Shown one piece after another: positions 27,805 through 42,553 of a DNA stretch of 64,000 nt. The stretch is from a phage. The stretch lies in sequence record PZ445527.1, one strand, 5' to 3'. The translations under genes were made by a program, and so were the position numbers. How positions within the stretch are numbered: the first letter of the stretch is position 1; each line of letters starts with the position of its first letter. Under the pieces are notes generated by a model. The model was not told where the DNA came from. It made no database searches and saw nothing but the letters and a program-made list of their open reading frames with translations.

Positions 27805-27881
27805 TGGCGCGACTGATGGGATTTGAACCCACATTCCCTCCCGTGATAGGGGAGTACCATTACCAAGCCAGCCACGGTCGC
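27805..27881 (-). tRNA. tRNA with unusual anticodon loop CTATCAC (anticodon AUC if folded conventionally)
   Basis: Acceptor 6/7 bp + CCA, T-arm GTGGG-TTCAAAT-CCCAT, anticodon stem CTCCC/GGGAG; A34 is atypical. Confidence 0.5.
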
Positions 27882-29978: not shown

Positions 29979-30053
29979 TGGTGGGTCGGAGGAGAATCTA
30001 ACTCCTACTCGTTAGCTTATGAGGCCACCGCTTTAACTTTAAGCTACCGACCC
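29979..30053 (-). tRNA. tRNA with CAU anticodon (Met or Ile-lysidine type) and atypical T-loop TTAGATT
   Basis: Perfect 7-bp acceptor GGGTCGG/CCGACCC, CCA, anticodon loop CTCATAA, T-stem AGGAG/CTCCT. Confidence 0.55.
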
Positions 30054-30059
30054 TATGTT

Positions 30060-30148
30060 TGGCGGAAGAAGTGGGAATCGAACCCACAAGGCTATATTTC
30101 AAACCGACAGATTAGCAATCTGCTGCAATACCGTTATGCTATTCTTCC
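30060..30148 (-). tRNA. tRNA-Ser (anticodon GCU), type II
   Basis: Perfect acceptor GGAAGAA/TTCTTCC, anticodon arm GCAGA-TTGCTAA-TCTGT, long variable arm, T-arm GTGGG-TTCGATT-CCCAC, CCA. Confidence 0.7.
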
Positions 30149-30687: not shown

Positions 30688-30724
30688 ATTTGATCCCCTA
30701 GTTAGTTGTATAAATACATTATAC

Positions 30725-30758
30725 AGAAAAGCCCTGCGCTCTCCAGTGAACGCAGGGC
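30725..30758 (-). terminator. rho-independent terminator (gccctgcg...cgcagggc + U-tract)
   Basis: 8-bp GC stem followed by UUUU on minus strand, downstream of 30784..31731. Confidence 0.65.
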
Positions 30759-30783
30759 TTACTTCGAATATTACGTGTGGGTA

Positions 30784-31731
30784 TTACTTGTTACGCATAT
30801 CCATAATCATTTGGCCATCGTAACCAGTGCCAACCACAGTCTGCGGTACACCACCTTGATACTTCTGAGCACGAATCATTTCAACTTCTAGTTGCTTCCA
30901 GCGAATCATCTCAGGAGTAATGGTACGTTGCAGAGCGGCGTTAGCTTCAGCTTCTTTCTTAGCTGCGTACAGTTTAGCATCTGCATCACGTTCGTTTGCA
31001 ATAGCTTGGTTGTTACGAGCTTCACGATCTGCTTCTGCTTGTTTAACCTTCTGCTGTGCTTCTTGTTCAACACGAGCCAACTCAGCTTTCGCAGCATTAA
31101 CTTGTTCTTCACGAACTTTGGTATTCTGTACCTGTTCCATGATTACAGGCGGCAAAGTAATATCCTGAAGGAACACTTGCTTAACTGTGTAACCATAAGG
31201 GCGTGCATACTCTTCAACTTCCTGTTGAATTGCAGTTTGCAATTGAGCCTGAATTTTAGCATCAAACAAATCTTGTGCTTTAGGTACAGACTTACCAAAC
31301 TCACGAATAGTAGACAGTAATTTTTCAGTTACATACTTGTCTAGTGCCTGATCCTGAGTACCTGCATTAATACGGTTAATCGGTGCCTTAGAACCATCAA
31401 ACTGCAACATAACAGTCAGGTCAACAGTGGATTTAAACTTATCCTGACTAGGAACCTGAAGTTTATCTAATTTTACAGCAATATCTTTTGTACTGAAAGT
31501 ATCGAAAGATGCAAACGGGTTTACAATATGGAAACCAGGTAATACTGGATTAGGGTCTACTTTACCAAGAAATGTTTGGGTTTTAACCGTACCATCAGAA
31601 ACAATAGTATATGAATTAAAAGCTAGGATTAAACCTGCTAAACCAACTACAGCACCAATACCCCAACGTTTAATAGTACGGATTACTTTCTGCTCAGAAG
31701 TCAGTTCTTTCATATTTTTAGTAGCAAACAT
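30784..31731 (-). CDS. SPFH/band-7 (prohibitin/HflK-like) membrane protein 315 aa
   Basis: N-terminal TM helix, SPFH-like core, long Ala/Glu/Gln-rich coiled-coil C-terminus. Confidence 0.6.
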   Translation of the reverse strand: MFATKNMKELTSEQKVIRTIKRWGIGAVVGLAGLILAFNSYTIVSDGTVKTQTFLGKVDPNPVLPGFHIVNPFASFDTFSTKDIAVKLDKLQVPSQDKFKSTVDLTVMLQFDGSKAPINRINAGTQDQALDKYVTEKLLSTIREFGKSVPKAQDLFDAKIQAQLQTAIQQEVEEYARPYGYTVKQVFLQDITLPPVIMEQVQNTKVREEQVNAAKAELARVEQEAQQKVKQAEADREARNNQAIANERDADAKLYAAKKEAEANAALQRTITPEMIRWKQLEVEMIRAQKYQGGVPQTVVGTGYDGQMIMDMRNK

Positions 31732-31765
31732 ATATTTCCTTTGTTTTAGTTACAGTTAATAAAAT

Positions 31766-31839
31766 TGGCCGAGGTGACAGGATTCGAACCTGCATAAAGG
31801 AATTTAGAAGACTCCTGCCTCTCCCTTAGACTACACCCC
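31766..31839 (-). tRNA. tRNA-Arg (anticodon UCU)
   Basis: Acceptor 7 bp (one G-U), anticodon loop CTTCTAA, T-loop TTCGAAT, CCA. Confidence 0.6.
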
Positions 31840-32343
31840 GTTTAAGTATTTTTAAGAACTCTCGTAAAAACTCTTAAAAATACAGACGATACCGGGAGAG
31901 TCATAAGTCTCACTCATTAAGTATTTCAAGACAAAATACAGTAACGTCTATTATTTTCCAGTTTAAGTCAGGGTGACTTAGTGGTTATGTCCTGCGGTAT
32001 ATTGAGGACTCGGTTAGGCTTGGGGTCATGACTTCCCGCCTTTTGCTGCTACTCAACAGGAGTTATCGCGAATTACCTGTGCTATTGTGCACCATTAGTG
32101 ACATCTCTCATGCCAGCATTTCCCACTTTGTGGATAGCTTGAAAAACTACTCCGATACGGAGAAAGAACTTCACTATCCTAGAATACCTTCTAAAGTTCT
32201 TCTTTAGCCTGGACATAGTTAAATCGTAATAAAACTATTCAGCAGACCGGTTGGTTAGTCTGGAACCAACTACCGCGTGGTTTAGGCAGTGCGCAACTAA
32301 CCTCGGAAGCTTTTACGTTAAAAGCACCAGTTATCCAGTTCTT

Positions 32344-32416
32344 ACCGACCGTAGGATTCGAACCTACATCTTCCACCAGTTACGGCTTGATAATACCAAT
32401 TATACTAGGACGGCAG
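32344..32416 (-). ncRNA. tRNA-like sequence (canonical T-arm GTAGG-TTCGAAT-CCTAC, no CCA, anticodon arm not resolved)
   Basis: Hand fold incomplete. Confidence 0.35.
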
Positions 32417-32490: not shown

Positions 32491-32519
32491 ATTATACAGA
32501 ATTTATAAGCATTTAGCAA
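32491..32519 (-). promoter_or_regulatory. sigma70 promoter (TTGCTA-17-TATAAT)
   Basis: Minus strand consensus; transcribes leftward into 32416-31766. Confidence 0.7.
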
Positions 32520-33200: not shown

Positions 33201-33650
33201 TTAAGTTTTAGTGACAACAGGCTTATAAAATGTATGTCCCTTAATCTTAGTTGTTTTCTTAAACTTCTTTGTCCAGTACGGTTTATCTTTACCACTATGG
33301 AAGTATAAAGCTCCATGTGTAGGATCTTGTGGTAAATCAACGTAGTATATCACTCTAGCTAAATTCTTGGCGGTTTTCCAAGCCTCATCGGTTTTATCAA
33401 CTTTTGGTCTCTTAGATACCCAAGAGAACTGGTTAGACTGATATACTACTTTACAGTAGGAATCTGGGAATTTACCGGAGTTTACACGGTTTTTAGTAAC
33501 ATGTGCAATCGCCGTCATTCCCTTTATGCCCTCACCACGACTTTCGAAATAGATATTTTTAGCAATGCAATCTATTTCTTTTGCATCGTGCGATGCCTGA
33601 CTACTAAAGCTGAAGGTAAGGGCAGCTACTAAAAGCAAAGCTGCCTTCAT
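33201..33650 (-). CDS. SleB-like cell wall hydrolase with signal peptide 149 aa
   Basis: Signal peptide MKAALLLVAALTFSFSSQA; hydrolase_2/SleB signature NIYFESRGE...AHVTKNRV...FP.SYC.VV.Q.NQFSW. Confidence 0.7.
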   Translation of the reverse strand: MKAALLLVAALTFSFSSQASHDAKEIDCIAKNIYFESRGEGIKGMTAIAHVTKNRVNSGKFPDSYCKVVYQSNQFSWVSKRPKVDKTDEAWKTAKNLARVIYYVDLPQDPTHGALYFHSGKDKPYWTKKFKKTTKIKGHTFYKPVVTKT

Positions 33651-33662
33651 TCTTTTTACTCC

Positions 33663-34484
33663 TTAAAATAGATCATATTCTAATCTATTGGGATTTTCTC
33701 GGTATCCATAAGACGTAAGAGTACCCCTCATATACTCTGCGTCAACAGGATTAGATGTTACTAGAACCACTTTTAGTGGTCTTTGACCTAAAAATAGTAT
33801 ATGATCTAATAAGTCTTTTCCTTGTACCTCTGGATCTCCTAAATCTGAGTCCATAAATAAATAGGATCCTGTGAAACTAAATATATCTGATAGTTCCAGC
33901 GCACCTATAACTGTACGACAAATAATGGACATTTCAGGTAGATCTCTAACATCGTCTATTAGAATATTGGTCTGCTTCCCAATTTCTGCATTACATAAAC
34001 CATTTACTAGTTTTTCTCTTTCCCCTTTAGCTTGTTCGAAAGTGGTGAAGCCAGGAGATACGAAAAACTTTCCACCTAATGTAATGCTATACACAAAACC
34101 CTCTGGGAGTAGTTCTACACCTACGGTTTTATTAGTATTAATCCTATTTAACTTAAAATTTGTCTCTCTTAGATTAATAATTCTGTTATCCCACGGTATA
34201 GTATTTATATGGTCGATCATATAAGGCGGCTCTTCACCATAATGGAGCAACCACGCTATTCGGTGTCCATAAATAATTGTGGGTTTATTATCTAAGAGCA
34301 AACTAACTCTGATGTACCCATCAGAGTTCTTACTACATATTTCTCTCCCAGCATATAGGGTGTGCCAAGTTTTATTCTTGTATTTATTAGGCTTATAAAA
34401 TAATTTACCGGTATAAGGATTATACTCTATAATTTCTCGAATATAATCTATATATGGTAGTATTTGTTTTTGTAATTTACCCAT
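33663..34484 (-). CDS. HNH endonuclease domain protein 273 aa
   Basis: N-terminal AP2-like segment and HNH motif (GHRIAWLLHYG...IDHINTIPWDNRIINLR). Confidence 0.6.
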   Translation of the reverse strand: MGKLQKQILPYIDYIREIIEYNPYTGKLFYKPNKYKNKTWHTLYAGREICSKNSDGYIRVSLLLDNKPTIIYGHRIAWLLHYGEEPPYMIDHINTIPWDNRIINLRETNFKLNRINTNKTVGVELLPEGFVYSITLGGKFFVSPGFTTFEQAKGEREKLVNGLCNAEIGKQTNILIDDVRDLPEMSIICRTVIGALELSDIFSFTGSYLFMDSDLGDPEVQGKDLLDHILFLGQRPLKVVLVTSNPVDAEYMRGTLTSYGYRENPNRLEYDLF

Positions 34485-34514
34485 AATAGCCTCGTTTCAT
34501 CAATTTAAAAATAT

Positions 34515-34543
34515 ATTATACAGATAACTTAGTAAATTAGCAA
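34515..34543 (-). promoter_or_regulatory. sigma70 promoter (TTGCTA-17-TATAAT)
   Basis: Minus strand consensus. Confidence 0.7.
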
Positions 34544-34926
34544 ATACATTTTTAAATTGTGAAACTAGTAAACCGATAAACAGCCTAGAGGCGCCACAGG
34601 CCATATCTTACGAGCCATGTACCTTTGATCTAGGGTTTGAATCATCAACGAATACTTTGCATCTTTTAGCTTTAGAAGTTTAGAAGTTTGAGTTCTTTAA
34701 ACTTTTCAGCTTTCATACTTAAATGTTGATCTTTGAAGTTGTGTCGGTAATATCAACGACGCTTTGTTTTTACGTGTCAGATTAAGTGTCTGATGTAATA
34801 AACATAATCTCCAATAGATTATACTTTATAGTATGGTCAGCGGTCTTATTTAACCTCGTATTTCAACCGCTGCTGCGAGGTAAGATGCTTGGGCTTTCGT
34901 CTACCGATTTACTAGCTTTTAAATTA

Positions 34927-35565
34927 TTACTCTACTTCAATGAAGGTAGAGGCGTTAGACTCGGACAGAACAAAGTCAACATTTGTTGCAAAGTCCTGAT
35001 ATTCCTCGTCATGCTGTTTAATCAGCTTCTCCAGCTCCAGCGGATCAATCAAGAATGGAGTATTCTTGAGTTCCAACAGGTTGAGCTGCATTTTAACTTC
35101 ATCTTCGGAAGTTTTCTTATCGCGGGTAGCCATGCTATCCTGCAAACGCTCATATTTAGCATCAAACTGTGCTTTCTGCGTATTAAACTTAACTGTAGCG
35201 GCATGGAACTGCTTACGCATGTTAGCCAGCAGCTGAGCTTTAAGCTCCATAGAACGCTTAGCTTCAATTGCTTCCGCAACAGTCATCTTACGAGAGCCAA
35301 TCTCAACGATTGTTTCCGCATTGCTTTTAATCAGAGCAGCTTTGATACGATCACGCTGGGACATCATATCCAGCAGAGACTGGAAATCAGTCTTAATACG
35401 GGTAGACAGATCAGCTACTTCGATTGCAGCGCCAACTACAACCTGGTTTTTATCCTTACCTTCACCAACAGCGATCAGAAGCTGTTGTTCAGTAGCTTTA
35501 CGGATTTTAGCTTCCAGAGATTTGATGGTTGCCAGAGCACGAGTTTTAGAAATACGAGTAGTCAT
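34927..35565 (-). CDS. hypothetical coiled-coil protein 212 aa
   Basis: ORF track; chosen over antisense plus ORF 34786..35598 on context. Confidence 0.55.
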   Translation of the reverse strand: MTTRISKTRALATIKSLEAKIRKATEQQLLIAVGEGKDKNQVVVGAAIEVADLSTRIKTDFQSLLDMMSQRDRIKAALIKSNAETIVEIGSRKMTVAEAIEAKRSMELKAQLLANMRKQFHAATVKFNTQKAQFDAKYERLQDSMATRDKKTSEDEVKMQLNLLELKNTPFLIDPLELEKLIKQHDEEYQDFATNVDFVLSESNASTFIEVE

Positions 35566-35618
35566 TATTTGCTTCCTTATATGAAGTTTGAGATTTGAAT
35601 TTGTTTAAAGTTGGTCTA

Positions 35619-35801
35619 TTACAGACCAATTGCCAGCAGAGTGCGTAGAACAGTATCGTTACTGTTATCAATTTTAGGATTAGCACGATTTAGCAGATCA
35701 AAGATCTTCTGGACACCTGATTGACGTTCAGCCATACGACGGCTACCCAGATTACGAGTAGCTTTCTTACCATTTTTACGAACATTTTTAGATACTGGCA
35801 T
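35619..35801 (-). CDS. small basic protein 60 aa
   Basis: ORF track. Confidence 0.45.
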   Translation of the reverse strand: MPVSKNVRKNGKKATRNLGSRRMAERQSGVQKIFDLLNRANPKIDNSNDTVLRTLLAIGL

Positions 35802-35872
35802 ATTTGTTTTCCTTTTATTGTTCTCTCAAATTTATGAATATATTATACAGAATTTTGGGGGCCGGAAGCAAA

Positions 35873-36574
35873 TCAAATTTTCATTTTTTCGATCATAGCT
35901 GCAACACAATAGCTCTCAACTAAGGCATCGAATGCTGGGTCATGTTTAACTGGGTAGATCCCATAACGAATGGTGTCCATCTTCTCCATTTTAGCTTTTG
36001 CCCAGCTAATCCCCTCTGCTTCTAGGTCTTTGTAGTTATAACCAGCCTGCATCCAGAGATTGCGGAGAGATCGAACATTACCCAAGTTCCAGAATTTCCA
36101 CGGAACTATTTCTTCATTGGTTCCAGCATGGAAAGTGTTTGCAGAGTAGATAGTCATATCAAACTCTGGGCCGTTGCCATAATACAAAGCATTCTCTCCT
36201 AGAGCCAACTCCATAATATTTTGAGCCATAGAGTAAGCAGCATAGTTAGAGCCGAGTTTATTAGTACAATGATGTTTACCGTTTTGGAATGCAATCAGCT
36301 TTGGATTACGTTCGTTCATAGCTTCCATAATGTGGAGAGCAGACGGACTATTTTTAGCTTGATCCATCCAGAATGCTAGAGTAGATGCTGTAACTTTAGC
36401 ACCAGAATTAAACTGATCTTGCACATCCAAAGTAACAAATACTAGATCAGGATCTTTATCAATTCCGTGCATAGCCACAAAAGCGAAAGAAGGCATTGCG
36501 ATATGAGTAGTACCACAATCTCCTGGAGTTCCTAGAGATTCAATATCTAGCATACCAAATGGTTTTACTTTCAT
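35873..36574 (-). CDS. DEDD-type 3'-5' exonuclease (T4 DexA-like) 233 aa
   Basis: N-terminal D-x-E motif (MLDIESLG), C-terminal H...D (HDPAFDAL). Confidence 0.55.
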   Translation of the reverse strand: MKVKPFGMLDIESLGTPGDCGTTHIAMPSFAFVAMHGIDKDPDLVFVTLDVQDQFNSGAKVTASTLAFWMDQAKNSPSALHIMEAMNERNPKLIAFQNGKHHCTNKLGSNYAAYSMAQNIMELALGENALYYGNGPEFDMTIYSANTFHAGTNEEIVPWKFWNLGNVRSLRNLWMQAGYNYKDLEAEGISWAKAKMEKMDTIRYGIYPVKHDPAFDALVESYCVAAMIEKMKI

Positions 36575-36602
36575 AACTTATCCTTTATTGTGTAGAAAAC
36601 TA

Positions 36603-36824
36603 TTAAAGAGCTGTCTCTTTAATAGACTCCCACTTCTTGGGGTCTTTAAAACCAGGAAGCATACCCTCACTGACATCCCAGTTCTCCTCCACATAGAGGT
36701 CCTCTAAGTCTAACTCATCTACTGCTAGATCCATTACCTCATGACTAGAAAGTCGTGTATAATCCCTAGCTGACTTATGGGTACTAGCACGGTTAAAATC
36801 ATTCTTTGCTACAAAATTACGCAT
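36603..36824 (-). CDS. hypothetical protein 73 aa
   Basis: ORF track. Confidence 0.45.
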   Translation of the reverse strand: MRNFVAKNDFNRASTHKSARDYTRLSSHEVMDLAVDELDLEDLYVEENWDVSEGMLPGFKDPKKWESIKETAL

Positions 36825-36834
36825 AGTTTCTCCA

Positions 36835-36857
36835 AATAAGAGGGGCTTTCGCCCCCT
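36835..36857 (-). terminator. stem-loop aggggc-tttc-gcccct, possible terminator
   Basis: 6-bp GC stem downstream of 36866..37081. Confidence 0.4.
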
Positions 36858-36865
36858 GATTTAAA

Positions 36866-37081
36866 TCACTTGCCCAGCAGTTTAAGGATATTTTCCATAA
36901 TAGTTTGGGCAGATTTTTCACTCTTGTTGGTTTCAGCCAACTTTAAAGCGAGTTCTTCCTGCTGTTTCTGAATATCCGCAGCAATTTTTTGATCAGCCTC
37001 AATACGAGCTTGAAGCTCATCAGTGATAGTGGTAAAGGAAGCAACGATTTCAGTAACAGAACGTGGTTTCTTAGAGAACAT
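36866..37081 (-). CDS. hypothetical coiled-coil protein 71 aa
   Basis: ORF track. Confidence 0.45.
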   Translation of the reverse strand: MFSKKPRSVTEIVASFTTITDELQARIEADQKIAADIQKQQEELALKLAETNKSEKSAQTIMENILKLLGK

Positions 37082-37144
37082 AAAAATATCCTTGATTAGT
37101 TAGAGAATTAGTAGATTCTAGGGGCAGAAGCCCCTATTTATCTA

Positions 37145-37660
37145 TTACTTCGCTTTACGTTTACGAGCTGGTTTAGCAGATTTACGAGCAGAATCACCCG
37201 TGAACTTAATGCCTACACCGTAACACAGAGCACGAACATTATCTTTACTATACTCTACGCCAAAGATATTTGGCTTAACAGAACCAAACTGTCCACGAGT
37301 ATCACGCAATACATCTGCCGTTGGTTTGCGTTTCTGGTTAACTGCTTTCTCGTAATCTTTCATGGCCATGCCATTACGAGGGAACAATTCTGCTCCAGCA
37401 TTGAAACTCAGTGCTACGGGAACAGATTTGTGACCGTAACCCTGTACATAGGTCACAAGGCGGGTTACAGAACGAGTAGCATTCTTAGCCTTCGGCTTTT
37501 GACGAATCGGAGCCGGACGATTCAGTGCCTGTGCAGCTTGAGCATCAGTAGGGTGCTTGCGCAGGTGGCGTTCCAGACGAGCTTTGCGGTTAGCCTCAGT
37601 CTGAGGGAAAGTTTTAACTGTAGTAGCTGCTTGAGTTTTTGCGTTTTTCTGCTTAGCCAT
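37145..37660 (-). CDS. basic hypothetical protein 171 aa (Lys/Arg-rich termini)
   Basis: ORF track; possibly nucleic-acid binding. Confidence 0.55.
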   Translation of the reverse strand: MAKQKNAKTQAATTVKTFPQTEANRKARLERHLRKHPTDAQAAQALNRPAPIRQKPKAKNATRSVTRLVTYVQGYGHKSVPVALSFNAGAELFPRNGMAMKDYEKAVNQKRKPTADVLRDTRGQFGSVKPNIFGVEYSKDNVRALCYGVGIKFTGDSARKSAKPARKRKAK

Positions 37661-37698
37661 TATTTGTTTTCCTTTTTGTTTATCAATTTATGAAGTAT

Positions 37699-37727
37699 AT
37701 TATACGGTAATTTGAAGCGTTTAGCAA
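37699..37727 (-). promoter_or_regulatory. sigma70 promoter (TTGCTA-17-TATAAT)
   Basis: Minus strand consensus. Confidence 0.7.
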
Positions 37728-37735
37728 ATGAATTT

Positions 37736-38185
37736 TTAATTTATTAACTGTAAGCTTCTTTTAATTTCAGACCTTACCTGCATCAAAAGAACTCCTAAAG
37801 TATTGTCCCCGATGCCTCGGCAAACACCCCAATATGTATCTCCCCAGGTATTTCCTTCGATCAAAGTTGCATTTTTTGTTGCTAACAGTTTGTCCCTCAA
37901 ATCAGGGATTGCAAACTTTAACCGTAAAAGCTCTAGCATTACGTCATCTTTTACCTTATCCCAGTCAGAGCGCAGAGTTAATTTACGTCCCCTACGTTTG
38001 GCAACTCCTGCATTTAGGGAGCGCAGTACATGAGCTACATCATCTTTTTGGTCGGATTTCATAGCCTGAAAAGCATGTTCTACAGTATCAGCATGCCATA
38101 TCTCATTTAGATATTCGAAAGTAATTGGTGATAAATAAAAGTTAGATAAAAAACTATAAGTACCTTTAAATTCAGTAATCTTCAT
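37736..38185 (-). CDS. NADAR (YbiA-like, DUF1768) domain protein 149 aa
   Basis: NADAR pattern: FLSNFY, EHAFQA.K, KRRGRK, RSDWDKVK, GNTWGDTYWG, LG..LM.VR. Confidence 0.7.
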   Translation of the reverse strand: MKITEFKGTYSFLSNFYLSPITFEYLNEIWHADTVEHAFQAMKSDQKDDVAHVLRSLNAGVAKRRGRKLTLRSDWDKVKDDVMLELLRLKFAIPDLRDKLLATKNATLIEGNTWGDTYWGVCRGIGDNTLGVLLMQVRSEIKRSLQLIN

Positions 38186-38466
38186 TTTTTACGCCCCGCA
38201 TCTTTAGCCTCCTCGGCTGTATAGATATACTGATAAGCCCCTTTGGAGTAGGCTGGAGCAGTACACATTTTCTTACGCTCAATCTCTTCTTGAGCTTTTC
38301 TTTCGCGTTCAGCTAATTCTTCATCCAGATAAACTAAACGTTGTTCTGGAGGAGGTGGAAGACGTGTTTCTGGCTCACCAATATTAGCCTTTCTTATTTG
38401 ACGAGGTGATTGTGCACGTTTTCTCAACGGTTTAAATCCTAATGAATTTGAGTTATAAATTCGCAT
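38182..38466 (-). CDS. hypothetical protein 94 aa
   Basis: ORF track. Confidence 0.5.
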   Translation of the reverse strand: MRIYNSNSLGFKPLRKRAQSPRQIRKANIGEPETRLPPPPEQRLVYLDEELAERERKAQEEIERKKMCTAPAYSKGAYQYIYTAEEAKDAGRKK

Positions 38467-38542
38467 AAAGCCCTCCTCACTTTCAATACGAATATTATAC
38501 TAAATTAGAGGGCTTTAAGCAAGAAGATTTTTAATTTATTTA

Positions 38543-39019
38543 TCACATCTCGGCAAGTTCTTGCTCAGTAATAACAGTATTACATAATGCGTCAACTTCT
38601 TCATTACCTCTAATACCTGAGTGCCCTTTAACCTTAATAAAGGTAGGGTTAGTATTATGAAAATTAATATACTGTTGGGTTAGTTTAAATGCTTCTTGCC
38701 ATAGTTCTAAATTGAGAGGAGCTTCACCATCTCCCTTCTTCCAGCCTTTCTTCTGCCAAGACCACATCCAGCTTTCCATACCATTTTTACAGTATGCAGA
38801 ATCAGTGTAGATTATAACTGGACGTTTATCATTCTTAGTAGCCCAGCGCAGAACTTCAACAATAGCTGTAAGTTCCATTTCATTGTTTGTGGTTTTTGGA
38901 CTGAAACCCGACTTAGAACCCAAACGTTCGTCATTAGGATCATAAACTACGAAACCCCAAGCACCTAAACCAGGATTACCTTTACAAGCCCCATCTGTAT
39001 ATATATGAAATGTACTCAT
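38543..39019 (-). CDS. rnhA: ribonuclease H (RNase HI type) 158 aa
   Basis: N-terminal FHIYTDGACKGNPG...WGF and conserved acidic residues. Confidence 0.8.
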   Translation of the reverse strand: MSTFHIYTDGACKGNPGLGAWGFVVYDPNDERLGSKSGFSPKTTNNEMELTAIVEVLRWATKNDKRPVIIYTDSAYCKNGMESWMWSWQKKGWKKGDGEAPLNLELWQEAFKLTQQYINFHNTNPTFIKVKGHSGIRGNEEVDALCNTVITEQELAEM

Positions 39020-39558
39020 TTATTAAGTTCCTCTAAAATAGGGGGTGGTTTTGTGGAATCAAAAGTTTCTATAACAGCGTTTTTACCGTGTAACTGTAGA
39101 CGAAGTTCATTGGCACATTGAATGGCGGATTCTAGGTCTTTGTACTCAAAATAACCACCATATACTGACTTTTTATCGGAGTCTCTAACATGTACTTGCC
39201 ATTTCTGATTTTGCCTATTCCAGCTAATTCCTAGATAACCAGATTTACTTCTAGTGGTTTTATTTCTCTGATTCTCTTGGTAATTAGATTTCCTGAGATT
39301 AATCCATCTATTATCATCTCGTATGCGGTTTATGTGGTCTACCATTTCCGGTAGATAGCCTTCCATATAGAGAAATGCTAGCTGATGCGCATAATATGGA
39401 TTTTTATCCACGGATATAGTTATATATCCGTCTTTTCTTAGATGACCAGCAATACTTCCTATTTTTCCGTTTCTACCCCTGACTCCCGTCCTTCTAGTAA
39501 ATATTCCGGTATCGGGGTTATAATCGAATAGTTCTTTTAATCTTTCTTGTGTGATCAT
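39016..39558 (-). CDS. HNH homing endonuclease (AP2-like N-terminal domain) 180 aa
   Basis: Paralog of 15232..15771 (same MITQERLKEL...YNP.TGIFT start). Confidence 0.7.
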   Translation of the reverse strand: MITQERLKELFDYNPDTGIFTRRTGVRGRNGKIGSIAGHLRKDGYITISVDKNPYYAHQLAFLYMEGYLPEMVDHINRIRDDNRWINLRKSNYQENQRNKTTRSKSGYLGISWNRQNQKWQVHVRDSDKKSVYGGYFEYKDLESAIQCANELRLQLHGKNAVIETFDSTKPPPILEELNK

Positions 39559-39938
39559 TCATCTAACCATCCTATGTCTATACTAAGTAATGCTTTTATT
39601 CCTGTAATACCTGTACCATAGGTATTATATCGAATAGCACTTCTGCTCTTTACTTCAAGTATATTTTCATACTCTGTATTTTCTAGAATTTCTGTAGATA
39701 TACCTAAATATCCTGATTGATCTTCCTCGTCCCAACCCATATCTTCTAGAAGATTTAGACGTAATTCTACCTTCTCATCTCCATTGCCTACAGAGTAGTA
39801 GTCTTCTAAAGTCCTGAATTTAGAAGTGATAGAGTCTAGTATTAATAATATCTGTTCCTTAGTAATAGTTTCTTTATCACCCTGTAAGTAATTGGAGTAA
39901 TTCAGAAGGGCTTGTTCTAATTCAATTTCTTTACTCAT
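39555..39938 (-). CDS. hypothetical acidic protein 127 aa
   Basis: ORF track. Confidence 0.5.
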   Translation of the reverse strand: MSKEIELEQALLNYSNYLQGDKETITKEQILLILDSITSKFRTLEDYYSVGNGDEKVELRLNLLEDMGWDEEDQSGYLGISTEILENTEYENILEVKSRSAIRYNTYGTGITGIKALLSIDIGWLDE

Positions 39939-40038
39939 TTTATTATCCTTTTGTACTTATTGAGTATATTATATTTAAAATTATACCTAATAAGCAGGTA
40001 CAATTTCAAATATAATAGCCCCGAAAGGGCTATTTGAG

Positions 40039-40878
40039 TTAAGAAGACATCTTAGCTTTAAGAGCTGGGTGAGGATCATACCCCTCCAAATGGAATGACC
40101 AAGCTGCCGTATTATTTTCTAGTAAGTCGTAAAGATCTACAAATTCTGGCATTACTAGAGTCGGTAAAGGACGAGGTTTACGTTTTACCTGTTCTTCTAC
40201 CTGTTCCATGTGGTCATTATAGATATGAGTATCGCCGCCACTAAAGATAAGGTAGCGAGGTTTTAATCCTGTCAGTTTTGCTAATATATGCGTTAATAAA
40301 GCATAACTAGCAATGTTGAAAGGTAAACCGAGGAAACAATCCACAGAACGTTGTGTCCATTTAAGATCTAGGTATCCATCGTTACTTACATAGCACTGGA
40401 AGCCGTAGTGACAGGGTGGTAATGCCATTTTATCAAGTTCAGCTACGTTCCATGCAGATACTAGGTGTCTGCGACCATGTGGGTTATTTTTGAGTCCCTC
40501 AATAAGTTCTATAATCTGATCTCGTCCACCAAAGTTGCGCCATTGTTTACCATATACTGGCCCTAGATTACCTTTGTCATAACCCATACTTATGGCTTGG
40601 TCTTCGTAGTTTGGAGTCCATATAGTCCATTGCCCCTCATCACACCCAAAAGTGAATACACGTAGATCATGAAGATTTGTGGAACCAGACAAGAACCATA
40701 AAAGTTCTCCTACTACTGATTTCCAGGCCAGGCGTTTAGTAGTTACAGCCGGGAACCCTTCACGTAGATCGAACTTAGCATAGGAATCAAAAATTGAAAC
40801 TGTGCCTGTTCCTGTACGGTCATTACGGGGTTCACCTAGTAAAATTACATCTGTCAAAATTTTTAAGTATTGTTGCAT
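40039..40878 (-). CDS. thyA: thymidylate synthase (ThyA type) 279 aa
   Basis: Conserved ThyA blocks (GxxxxDRTGTGT, catalytic-Cys region LPPCH, GLPFNIASYALLTHI). Confidence 0.9.
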   Translation of the reverse strand: MQQYLKILTDVILLGEPRNDRTGTGTVSIFDSYAKFDLREGFPAVTTKRLAWKSVVGELLWFLSGSTNLHDLRVFTFGCDEGQWTIWTPNYEDQAISMGYDKGNLGPVYGKQWRNFGGRDQIIELIEGLKNNPHGRRHLVSAWNVAELDKMALPPCHYGFQCYVSNDGYLDLKWTQRSVDCFLGLPFNIASYALLTHILAKLTGLKPRYLIFSGGDTHIYNDHMEQVEEQVKRKPRPLPTLVMPEFVDLYDLLENNTAAWSFHLEGYDPHPALKAKMSS

Positions 40879-41411
40879 TAATAAGTAACCAATTCCTGTA
40901 CAAATCGCAGGCTGTTATCACTGTTTGCGCCAACTGCATAGACTAATCGAGTGGATTCATAGTTATAATCCAGTATCATACTATCTAGGTGTGTATCTGC
41001 CTCTAGCTTCTGTTCGCTAAAGATTGTAGATACAAAAGCACTTTCAATATGCCCATGTTGGTACATTTCTAGAAGAAGACTAGCTCCACCTAGAACTACT
41101 GTTTGCTGATCTTTTAGAAAGGTAGGTAATGTATCACCTATCATTGATATGGGAGTGTAAATATCGTGTGTAATATCGTCTGGCAGTGGACGATCAGCAC
41201 GAATAAATAGGTCAGAAGCTCCAATCATACGTTCCCTAACGGTATATGGAAGAGCTAAATAAGTACCCGCACCAATGATGATATTATCGGGATTCAACAC
41301 GTCCAGTTGGGAATAGAAAGCATTCAGCTCTTCCTTGAAGGAGCCCCAAGGAAGCTTACCCCGGAGGCCGAACTCCCCATTCGGCCCAACTGCATACATT
41401 GCTGTAATCAT
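40878..41411 (-). CDS. frd: dihydrofolate reductase 177 aa
   Basis: DHFR-like N-terminus (IGxxGxLPW), size, position between thyA and nrdB. Confidence 0.75.
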   Translation of the reverse strand: MITAMYAVGPNGEFGLRGKLPWGSFKEELNAFYSQLDVLNPDNIIIGAGTYLALPYTVRERMIGASDLFIRADRPLPDDITHDIYTPISMIGDTLPTFLKDQQTVVLGGASLLLEMYQHGHIESAFVSTIFSEQKLEADTHLDSMILDYNYESTRLVYAVGANSDNSLRFVQELVTY

Positions 41412-42553
41412 AGGAAATCTCCAAATTCATTACCCAAATCTTTCAGGGTATCCATAGACGTTTCTGTGACTTGACCTACACGGTAGGCTGCACCAATCTG
41501 GATTTCTTGTGGAGCAGGCTGTAGAGAGGTAGTATCCAACCAGTTCATGATCCACGGAATAGGGTTTTTGGTGATTACTGGTAAGTGACTAGGCCATTCT
41601 ACACCAATGTGCATAAATGCATTACGCCCCACAAAGTACAGATATTCTTCTAGAAGTTCTGCATTCAAACCAATCAGACTACGACCTTTGAAGATGAAAT
41701 GACCCCATTCAATTTCAGTTTTCAGAGTTTTCAGGAGCTGTGCTGGTGCTTTAGCCACTGCTTCATCTACCAGATCTTTGTCAAACTGCTGGAACATAAT
41801 CTGGATGATTGTTTTAGACATCTGCGTGTGAAGGGCCTCATCCTTAGCAATCAACTGCAGATTTTTAGCAATACCTTGCAGAATATCGTTCTCTGCTAAC
41901 GCAAAGGTACATGCAAAGGATGCGTAGAACTGCATTGCTTCCAGACCGTAGATTGCAAAATAAGCATCTAACAGTTTAGCCTGAGTTTCACGCTTAACTT
42001 CAGGGAACTCAGTTTCTGGGTATGTATTGTCACCACGATGATCACGTACTGCGATGAAATACTGACCTAACTGGTACAGTTCATCAAATAGTTCAACAGA
42101 ATCTGCGATACGTGCAAATGCTTCTTGGTTTTTAGTTACAGAATCAATAAATTCTGCCGGATCAGTCAACACATTACGAATAATATTGCTATAGGCACGA
42201 CTATGCAGGTCTTCAAAGTAGCTCCACTGTTTTAGCATTCCTTCCAGTTCAGGGCGGCTTACAAGCGGCATAATAGCTGCTTCAGGTGCGCGACTAATGA
42301 AAGAATCTGTTTGGGTCTGCCATGCTAAGTTCAGGAGTGTAATTTCCTGAATTTCACGAGGGAGGTTAGGCCATTGTTTCTTATCAGCCTCTAAACTGAT
42401 TTCTGTCTCAGTCCAAAATTGAGAGCGTTGCAGAAGTGCCAGACGCTCTAATTCTGGATGTGCTACGCGTACATAATCTGCGATACCTAGAGAATCGCCC
42501 AGGAAAAGATCAGCGTTAGTATGATCCCAATTCAGGTTTAGTAAAGTAGTCAT
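41408..42553 (-). CDS. nrdB: ribonucleotide reductase class Ia small subunit (NrdB) 381 aa
   Basis: Di-iron/tyrosyl-radical R2 blocks, size, adjacency to nrdA. Confidence 0.85.
   Translation of the reverse strand: MTTLLNLNWDHTNADLFLGDSLGIADYVRVAHPELERLALLQRSQFWTETEISLEADKKQWPNLPREIQEITLLNLAWQTQTDSFISRAPEAAIMPLVSRPELEGMLKQWSYFEDLHSRAYSNIIRNVLTDPAEFIDSVTKNQEAFARIADSVELFDELYQLGQYFIAVRDHRGDNTYPETEFPEVKRETQAKLLDAYFAIYGLEAMQFYASFACTFALAENDILQGIAKNLQLIAKDEALHTQMSKTIIQIMFQQFDKDLVDEAVAKAPAQLLKTLKTEIEWGHFIFKGRSLIGLNAELLEEYLYFVGRNAFMHIGVEWPSHLPVITKNPIPWIMNWLDTTSLQPAPQEIQIGAAYRVGQVTETSMDTLKDLGNEFGDFL

Follow-up and report, generated by a model that had tools for sequence, protein, structure and literature searches.

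A conserved, laboratory-dispensable SPFH/band-7 gene of T5-like phages and its predicted membrane-cage architecture

What might a virulent phage gain from encoding an SPFH/band-7 membrane protein among its tRNA genes? This question is raised by a gene on the minus strand of a 64,000-nucleotide stretch of phage DNA (record PZ445527.1, the whole of which is called the window here), whose orthologue in phage T5 is T5.080. The answer towards which we lean, with slightly better than even confidence, is that T5.080-type proteins would form an early, periplasm-facing inner-membrane cage of about 24 subunits that sequesters or shields a client, with a benefit that depends on conditions.

Identity and predicted architecture of the protein

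Pfam Band_7 (PF01145) matches residues 52-225 of the product (E 1.8e-17, 64.4 bits against a gathering cut-off of 23.6), which bears out its description as an SPFH/band-7 protein in the first-pass annotation of this DNA. The ratio of nonsynonymous to synonymous substitution rates (dN/dS) is 0.043 against T5 and 0.07-0.19 against distant phage homologues, for which dS is saturated; because the reading frame is under purifying selection against T5, we regard it as a real gene and not a chance open reading frame. Over the 5 kb around it, identity is 96.6% to Salmonella phage Shivani and to Shigella phage SHSML-45 and 96% to T5, and on this basis the window is assigned to Tequintavirus. The T5.080 orthologue (YP_006908.1) is of equal length and has 98.7% amino-acid identity.

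The identification itself is already known, since earlier annotations of T5, T5-like and T4-like phages contain it. The T5 record AY587007 (AAX12012.1) names the gene "putative transmembrane protein; IPR001107: band 7 protein", several recent T5-like records use "SPFH domain containing protein", and a comparison of T4-like phages in 2006 reported SPFH/Band 7 matches for RB43 ORF139c, 44RR ORF098c and Aeh1 ORF064c (PMC1524935), all of which belong to the same subfamily as the T5.080-type protein. An NCBIfam scan of the protein gave no match and hence no finer family name. The gene and the parts of its product are as follows.

30784..31731, minus strand: SPFH/band-7 gene, 315 codons plus stop, ATG start (open reading frame, Pfam Band_7, orthologue of T5.080 / AAX12012.1)
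31666..31731, minus strand: basic N-terminal tail, codons 1-22 (6 K/R, 2 D/E), predicted to be cytoplasmic by the positive-inside rule
31600..31665, minus strand: sole transmembrane segment, codons 23-44 (WGIGAVVGLAGLILAFNSYTIV; Kyte-Doolittle maximum 1.79 over 19 residues)
31150..31599, minus strand: alpha/beta SPFH core, codons 45-194, with the invariant motif VPSQDKFK (Pfam, AlphaFold2, fold matches)
30859..31149, minus strand: two long helices, codons 195-291, equivalents of the cage-wall helices CC1 and CC2 (AlphaFold2, Foldseek)
30787..30858, minus strand: conserved C-terminal segment, codons 292-315 (YxGGVPQTVVGxGYDGxMIMDMRxK), a candidate "cap" (near-invariant columns)

An AlphaFold2 monomer model built from 22 homologues, with a mean predicted local distance difference test score (pLDDT) of 78, consists of a transmembrane helix at residues 12-38, an alpha/beta core at 41-192, a helix of 76 residues at 195-270 and a further helix at 273-291. 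The N-terminal transmembrane helix and the long coiled-coil tail proposed earlier from the letters can both be recognised here, the former as the one hydrophobic segment at about 23-44 within the modelled helix and the latter as the two predicted helices, 67% of whose residues are A, E, Q, K or R. Foldseek comparison of the model with the PDB gave matches of probability 1.0 over 270-305 columns to erlin1/2 (E 1e-14), PHB1/2 and HflK/C (7vhq, 7wi3, 9cz2), and likewise of probability 1.0 to stomatin, QmcA, flotillin and the major vault protein, so that the targets comprise subunits of every solved SPFH cage. As modelled, the phage protein is thus shown to have every part of a cage-forming SPFH subunit: transmembrane anchor, core, CC1, CC2 and conserved C-terminus. 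The last of these has low pLDDT in the monomer, with two short strands at 300-302 and 308-310, and by analogy with published cage structures (PMC12624060) it would fit a "cap" that folds only in the oligomer.

A different view of the protein is carried by its database labels. RefSeq (NC_005859) gives T5.080 the product name "lipoprotein ... contains single transmembrane domain", and PHROG 200 ("lipoprotein") matches the protein at E 2.4e-86, which explains the RefSeq name. According to these labels, which are what speaks for it, the product would be an envelope protein anchored by lipid, like Llp of T5. We rejected the label: cysteine is wholly absent from the protein, as is a lipobox, 111 of 117 close homologues likewise contain no cysteine, and the N-terminal segment is predicted as one long transmembrane helix (12-38) and not as a cleavable signal peptide. 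A lipoprotein is therefore given next to no probability, and the label, which is widespread through RefSeq and PHROG 200, needs correcting.

The orientation in the membrane was predicted from the charges that flank the transmembrane segment. The 22-residue N-terminal tail has 6 K/R and 2 D/E, while the 21 residues past the segment have 2 and 2; in the 117 close homologues, mean counts are 2.87 K+R and 0.49 D+E for the N-flank, against 1.69 and 1.24 for the C-flank. This bias, by the positive-inside rule, predicts an N-in/C-out protein with its SPFH domain and helices in the periplasm. The size of the cage was estimated from the length of CC1 with a published regression for subunit number, y = 0.1782x + 10.22 (PMC12624060), by which the 76-residue CC1 gives 23.8 subunits, or 22-25 given that the CC1 boundary comes from the monomer model and may be off by about 10 residues; our estimate from the model is thus a cage of about 24 subunits.

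Put together, the cage reading would run as follows. The protein would be expressed early, from a promoter upstream of the RNAX and tRNA-Arg genes described below, and would become anchored in the inner membrane of the host, the basic N-terminus lying in the cytoplasm and the SPFH and helical parts in the periplasm, as in HflK/C. Copies of it would then assemble into a homo-oligomeric dome of some 24 subunits, enclosing a patch of the inner membrane in which a client is sequestered or shielded. By analogy with HflK/C and prohibitin, FtsH would be the leading candidate for this client, and the gene neighbourhood makes the holin/antiholin or cell-wall-hydrolase machinery the second. The benefit would be conditional, the protein being dispensable on laboratory E. 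coli and selected in natural hosts.

Besides the spread in subunit number that follows from the CC1 boundary, several points weigh against this cage reading. A profile of the family, compared with the PDB, matched QmcA best (E 1e-7), followed by PHB2 (3.6e-5), PHB1 (about 5e-4) and HflC (3.5e-3); sequence affinity to HflC is therefore marginal and that to HflK nil, and among solved structures QmcA is nearest in sequence, a protein that reportedly faces the cytoplasm (Chiba et al. 2006). The charge bias is plain in phage members and ambiguous in cellular relatives. The structure prediction covered monomers only, and the oligomer, the orientation in the membrane and the client are all inferred. 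Finally, our search of the literature on T5.080, on phage SPFH proteins and on SPFH together with holin returned annotation remarks only, with no functional study or phenotype; papers that mention phage SPFH genes either call their role poorly understood or speculate that they affect lysogeny in the manner of HflK/C (PMC7760394, PMC8540360, PMC10269572).

The same structural data bear on a more specific explanation, namely that the phage protein imitates HflK/C by caging FtsH from the periplasmic side, replacing or competing with the host pair and thereby altering the degradation of membrane proteins (the phage's own, or SecY) or of LpxC during infection. Phages do target host proteases, lambda CIII inhibiting FtsH and T4 PinA inhibiting Lon, and this counts in its favour. 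The predicted orientation and overall architecture are also those of HflK/C, the CC1 length predicts about 24 subunits, which is the number in the HflK/C cage, and SPFH partners of AAA proteases recur, as in HflK/C with FtsH and prohibitin with FtsH relatives (PMC12048511). However, the comparison by sequence goes the other way, with HflK unmatched by the family profile and HflC matched without any stretch passing alone, and the published contact of HflK Arg191 to FtsH residues 62-64 (PMC12048511) is unmappable because HflK does not align by sequence. Moreover, the phage has a single gene in place of the obligate hetero-pair of HflK and HflC, neither ftsH nor hflX adjoins the cellular relatives in Morganella and Methylophagaceae, and the T5 mutant st0 grows without the gene. 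We consider this explanation unlikely. The resemblance to HflK suggested in the first-pass annotation therefore holds at the level of superfamily and architecture and fails by sequence and gene number, with QmcA and prohibitin being closer.

Conservation, loss and distribution of the gene

The conservation of the SPFH gene was compared with that of a core gene of the same genome. Phage records that contain the SPFH protein at 80% identity or more number 441 (126+82+223+10), and those that contain the core replication helicase/origin-binding protein of the window at the same threshold also number 441 (9+57+371+4); the two sets are not proven to be identical, as T5 st0 has no SPFH gene and a 3.6-kb fragment record contributes to the SPFH count only. 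These sequence counts show the SPFH gene to be near-universal in T5-like phages. It is also the better conserved of the two, with 208 records at 95% identity or more against 66 for the helicase. Natural losses are occasional: NG_S8 keeps only the last 42 codons, and in phage bastian the gene is split.

The heat-stable deletion mutant T5 st0 (AY692264) lacks the gene. Wild-type position 33,680 is joined in st0 to 41,879, so that 33,681-41,878 are deleted, and with them T5.080 (39,791-40,738) and several kb of neighbouring genes; a tblastn search of the 16 kb around the deletion junction found no copy of the SPFH gene. This mutant is routinely propagated on E. coli F and is a standard laboratory phage (bioRxiv 10.1101/2022.09.22.509047). 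Another viable variant, T5Mos, is Δ30661-38625 (PMC11464382); the SPFH gene lies outside this deletion and is retained. The gene is thus non-essential in the laboratory and clearly selected in nature. Because st0 is viable, any role of the protein must be accessory, and from the combination of strong conservation with absence from st0 we infer a conditional fitness gene.

In all, T5-like phages included, the protein is present in 726 phage records (tblastn). Identity to the window protein is at least 90% in T5-like phages, about 76-78% in T4-like Slopekvirus/RB43-type phages of Klebsiella, Enterobacter and Cronobacter, 73-75% in Proteus phage J3S (Grimontviridae), about 60% in T4-like phages of Aeromonas and about 35% in some Vibrio phages. 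An exhaustive profile search of 1.84 billion cluster representatives returned 2,071 proteins at E <= 1e-3 and 85 at E <= 1e-30; as there are so few, we regard the family as a narrow and distinct SPFH subfamily and not as generic HflK/C or stomatin. Judged by sequence, this narrow subfamily is common to unrelated virulent phages at 60-78% identity.

Three database records with the protein or its companions have unexpected labels. An SPFH protein 74% identical to that of the window lies on a contig of 178,077 bp assigned to "Flagellimonas marina" (Flavobacteriia; NZ_JBHSCL010000010.1, our L006), which is probably a phage contig binned with the assembly or contaminating it, its size being that of the Slopekvirus/RB43-type genomes that carry the gene. 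"Listeria phage LM 4-14-1" (OR848805.1, 3,599 bp) carries a T5-type SPFH gene and "Campylobacter phage A148" (MG065642.1) a T5-type helicase, at 94-99% identity; both are probably mislabelled or contaminant T5-like sequences.

Bacterial chromosomes, scanned with one genome per species, contain two groups of homologues. The first occurs throughout the sampled Morganella and Providencia at 57-59% identity (among them M. morganii CP173058.1, L018 5968..6939; also L007-L017 and L019), and the second in Methylococcaceae, Methylophaga and other marine Gammaproteobacteria at 31-41%. We considered a prophage origin for the Morganella and Methylophagaceae copies and rejected it, as both have ordinary chromosomal flanking genes: in Morganella, one flank holds a decarboxylase, a permease, TetR and ADH, and the opposite flank HlyD with a C39-ABC exporter, and in Methylophagaceae the gene lies between trpF-trpB-trpA-accD-folC and an FAD oxidoreductase. 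In a neighbour-joining tree (midpoint-rooted, no support values), the genes of methylotrophs form one deep clade and all phage genes the other. The Morganellaceae genes nest within the phage clade, beside the metagenomic homologues P0113 and P0101, whose contigs have the T5-like order DHFR, ThyA, RNase H, Hydrolase_2, YqeY, Band_7. The tree topology suggests an old transfer from phage to bacterium into Morganellaceae. Among 5,426 complete E. coli genomes, none has a DNA-level counterpart of the SPFH gene, so that at close range the phage gene is not redundant with one of the host.

The pattern of conservation and loss would fit counter-defence or exclusion. The cage might guard the inner membrane against membrane-targeting abortive-infection effectors or block the entry of DNA from superinfecting phages, and a gene that is near-universal, conserved, exchanged at 60-78% identity among unrelated virulent phages and dispensable in the laboratory would suit such a task. 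Within the same deletable region of T5 there is also a tRNA-Lys with a proven role in counter-defence, against PARIS (PMC11464382). This evidence is circumstantial, a PADLOC scan of the protein found no defence family at E <= 0.01, and the literature provides no link; in addition, cellular homologues of housekeeping type, such as the one downstream of folC in Methylophagaceae, argue for a generic membrane function. We therefore consider a counter-defence or exclusion role very improbable. A broader version, in which unrelated virulent phages have exchanged the cage as a device dedicated to host takeover or counter-defence, one that seizes an inner-membrane client of the host (FtsH, or whatever a membrane-acting defence or lysis system targets), is speculative and also improbable, though less markedly so; if true, it would explain near-universal conservation alongside absence from a healthy laboratory mutant, and the chromosomal copy of Morganella and Providencia would be a domesticated phage gene.

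Transcription context and neighbouring genes

An early transcription unit, as read from the sequence around the gene and from the T5 map, speaks for the cage reading. The following elements surround the gene.

31737..31741, minus strand: ribosome-binding site AAGGA, 5 nt before the ATG
31766..31840, minus strand: tRNA-Arg(TCT), 34 nt upstream of the SPFH start (ARAGORN; Rfam 49.3 bits)
32343..32414, minus strand: tRNA-like element in the equivalent of T5 "RNAX", between the promoter and tRNA-Arg (Rfam tRNA, 35.5 bits)
32491..32519, minus strand: sigma-70-type promoter-like site TTGCTA-17-TATAAT, at the position of T5 early promoter P16-17 (consensus scan)
30729..30760, minus strand: intrinsic terminator hairpin, 13-bp stem and T-run, 24 nt past the SPFH stop (scan)
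29979..30148: tRNA-Ser and tRNA-Met, downstream beyond a 172-aa Toprim gene (ARAGORN)
33201..33650, minus strand: SleB-type cell-wall hydrolase (Pfam Hydrolase_2, 89.5 bits)

The gene does lie between tRNA genes, as had been noted from the letters, with tRNA-Arg upstream and tRNA-Ser and tRNA-Met downstream past the Toprim gene, and T5-like genome maps support its placement in the early region. ARAGORN finds 12 tRNA genes on the strand of the SPFH gene. It makes no call for the tRNA-like element at 32343..32414, at the equivalent of which AY587007 annotates a pseudo-tRNA; the "RNAX" of T5 is a stable RNA. The T5 map places the annotated tRNA-Arg between the upstream promoter and the SPFH gene, and by analogy with it we infer that the SPFH gene is co-transcribed with RNAX and tRNA-Arg. 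The promoter-like site at 32491..32519, as recognised by its sequence, is the likely start of this transcript.

At the other end, the strong terminator hairpin carries GAGCGCAG, the nick consensus of T5 (GCGC at 30736..30739), so that terminator and nick site coincide in one element. The hairpin is conserved with a T5 site that is annotated both as a terminator and as "major single-stranded nick 3 (32.6%)". Similarity to T5 ends directly after the T-run of the hairpin: the plus-strand cassette T5.077-T5.079 (about 1.9 kb, NC_005859 37,877..39,720), with its own promoter and a bidirectional terminator, is missing from the window at about 30688..30721.

Two further differences from T5 concern the tRNA genes. 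The window has no hegA HNH endonuclease gene, which in T5 adjoins tRNA-Ile2/Ser3. The tRNA-Asp at 27805..27881 (minus strand) has the anticodon ATC, with A at wobble position 34, against GTC in T5; it has four changes in 77 nt relative to T5, of which one sets C6 against A67 as a mismatch within the acceptor stem and another brings U8 back. This tRNA might be in decay, or it might be a variant with unusual decoding.

The SleB-type hydrolase upstream begins with a signal-like sequence (MKAALLLVAALTFSFSSQASH). It is located among early genes, apart from the main lysis genes, which is unexpected for an apparently secreted peptidoglycan hydrolase. The order Hydrolase_2, YqeY-like, Band_7 is kept in T5-like phages, including the divergent L067 and L069. 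Proteus J3S has a Hydrolase_2 gene 1 kb away from its SPFH gene; the hydrolases of J3S and of the T5 type are 32% identical and the SPFH proteins 73%, so the two genes have not been recently transferred together. A true RI antiholin (PF24205) is encoded at a distance of 0.5-3 kb from the SPFH gene in KP15 and in Aeromonas 60AhydR15PP. This recurring proximity, within about 3 kb, to lysis and cell-wall genes that act in the periplasm is suggestive, resting on four phage lineages that are not independent. The first-pass annotation proposed that the phage may modulate host membrane proteolysis or the timing of lysis; we regard this as a reasonable hypothesis, to whose lysis part the neighbourhood lends weak support. 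As a separate observation, a gene with a cREC_REC domain (cyclic-phosphate processing receiver) lies downstream of the SPFH gene both in J3S (L005 4694..5032) and on a divergent T5-like contig (L067 11468..11806).

The neighbourhood is what would recommend control of the envelope or of lysis as the function. The scaffold would corral or shield the holin/antiholin or the early secreted SleB-type hydrolase, or it would stabilise the inner membrane and so tune the timing of lysis or avert premature membrane failure. The gene order that is kept even in divergent T5-like phages speaks for this, as do the Hydrolase_2 gene of J3S and the RI antiholins of KP15 and 60AhydR15PP at the distances given above. 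Set against it are the dependence among the four lineages and the fact that the tk-rI region of T4-like phages is a known variable region with many accessory genes. Furthermore, the viable st0 has the hydrolase and no SPFH gene, and the literature documents no physical or genetic link. We judge such a function distinctly unlikely as the explanation for the gene, and the cage reading, in which this machinery is the second candidate for the client, is retained.

Significance and comparison with known SPFH systems

Virus-encoded SPFH proteins range from T5 and T4-like phages to giant viruses, and the T5.080-type gene is a convenient entry point to them, since it belongs to a model phage, is dispensable (st0), is selected in nature, and has hosts without close copies. 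Identification of its client would reveal how a lytic phage remodels the inner membrane of its host, and structural studies would gain a bacterial SPFH cage that is simple and homo-oligomeric. To the existing annotation our analysis adds the correction of the label, a narrow subfamily shared between phage families, the apparently phage-derived copy in Morganellaceae, the contrast between conservation and dispensability in st0, the predicted HflK/C-like orientation and cage size, and a lead from the neighbouring lysis genes.

Compared with known systems, the closest is T5.080 itself, which resembles the window gene in its flanks, with tRNA-Arg upstream and the nick-3/terminator hairpin downstream, and differs in that T5 has the 1.9-kb plus-strand cassette T5.077-079 between the SPFH and Toprim genes, which the window lacks. 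Other virus-encoded SPFH proteins occur in T4-like phages, in Vibrio, Rhizobium and Streptomyces phages and in giant viruses, and BFVD contains many viral SPFH folds. RB43, KP15 and the T4-like phages of Aeromonas have members of the subfamily described here (60-78% identity); the more distant viral proteins, at about 15-22% identity, belong to other subfamilies.

PHB1/2 and erlin1/2 are the top structural matches and share with the phage protein an N-terminal anchor and, as predicted for the latter, a domain on the non-cytosolic or intermembrane side; however, they are hetero-oligomers of two paralogues and are only 14-19% identical to it. QmcA (PDB 8z5g, with the NfeD partner YbbJ) is the best sequence match among solved structures and forms a homo-oligomeric cage. 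It differs in having an NfeD partner and in the cytoplasmic side that it is said to face, whereas the basic N-terminal tail of the phage protein predicts the opposite orientation. By Pfam, no NfeD or protease gene neighbours the SPFH gene in the window, KP15, Aeromonas 60AhydR15PP, Proteus J3S, Morganella or Methylophagaceae; with no adjacent NfeD gene in these six neighbourhoods, the arrangement is not that of a stomatin-NfeD operon.

HflK and HflC of E. coli are a hetero-pair of paralogues that modulates FtsH. A profile search of all six-frame open reading frame fragments found no second SPFH gene in the window, and T5 maps also have one copy; as the window holds one SPFH gene, it does not encode such a pair, and the sequence relation is very weak. 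The likeness to HflK/HflC lies instead in the single N-terminal transmembrane segment, the succession of SPFH domain, CC1, CC2 and C-terminus, the predicted N-in/C-out orientation, and a CC1 whose length predicts about 24 subunits.

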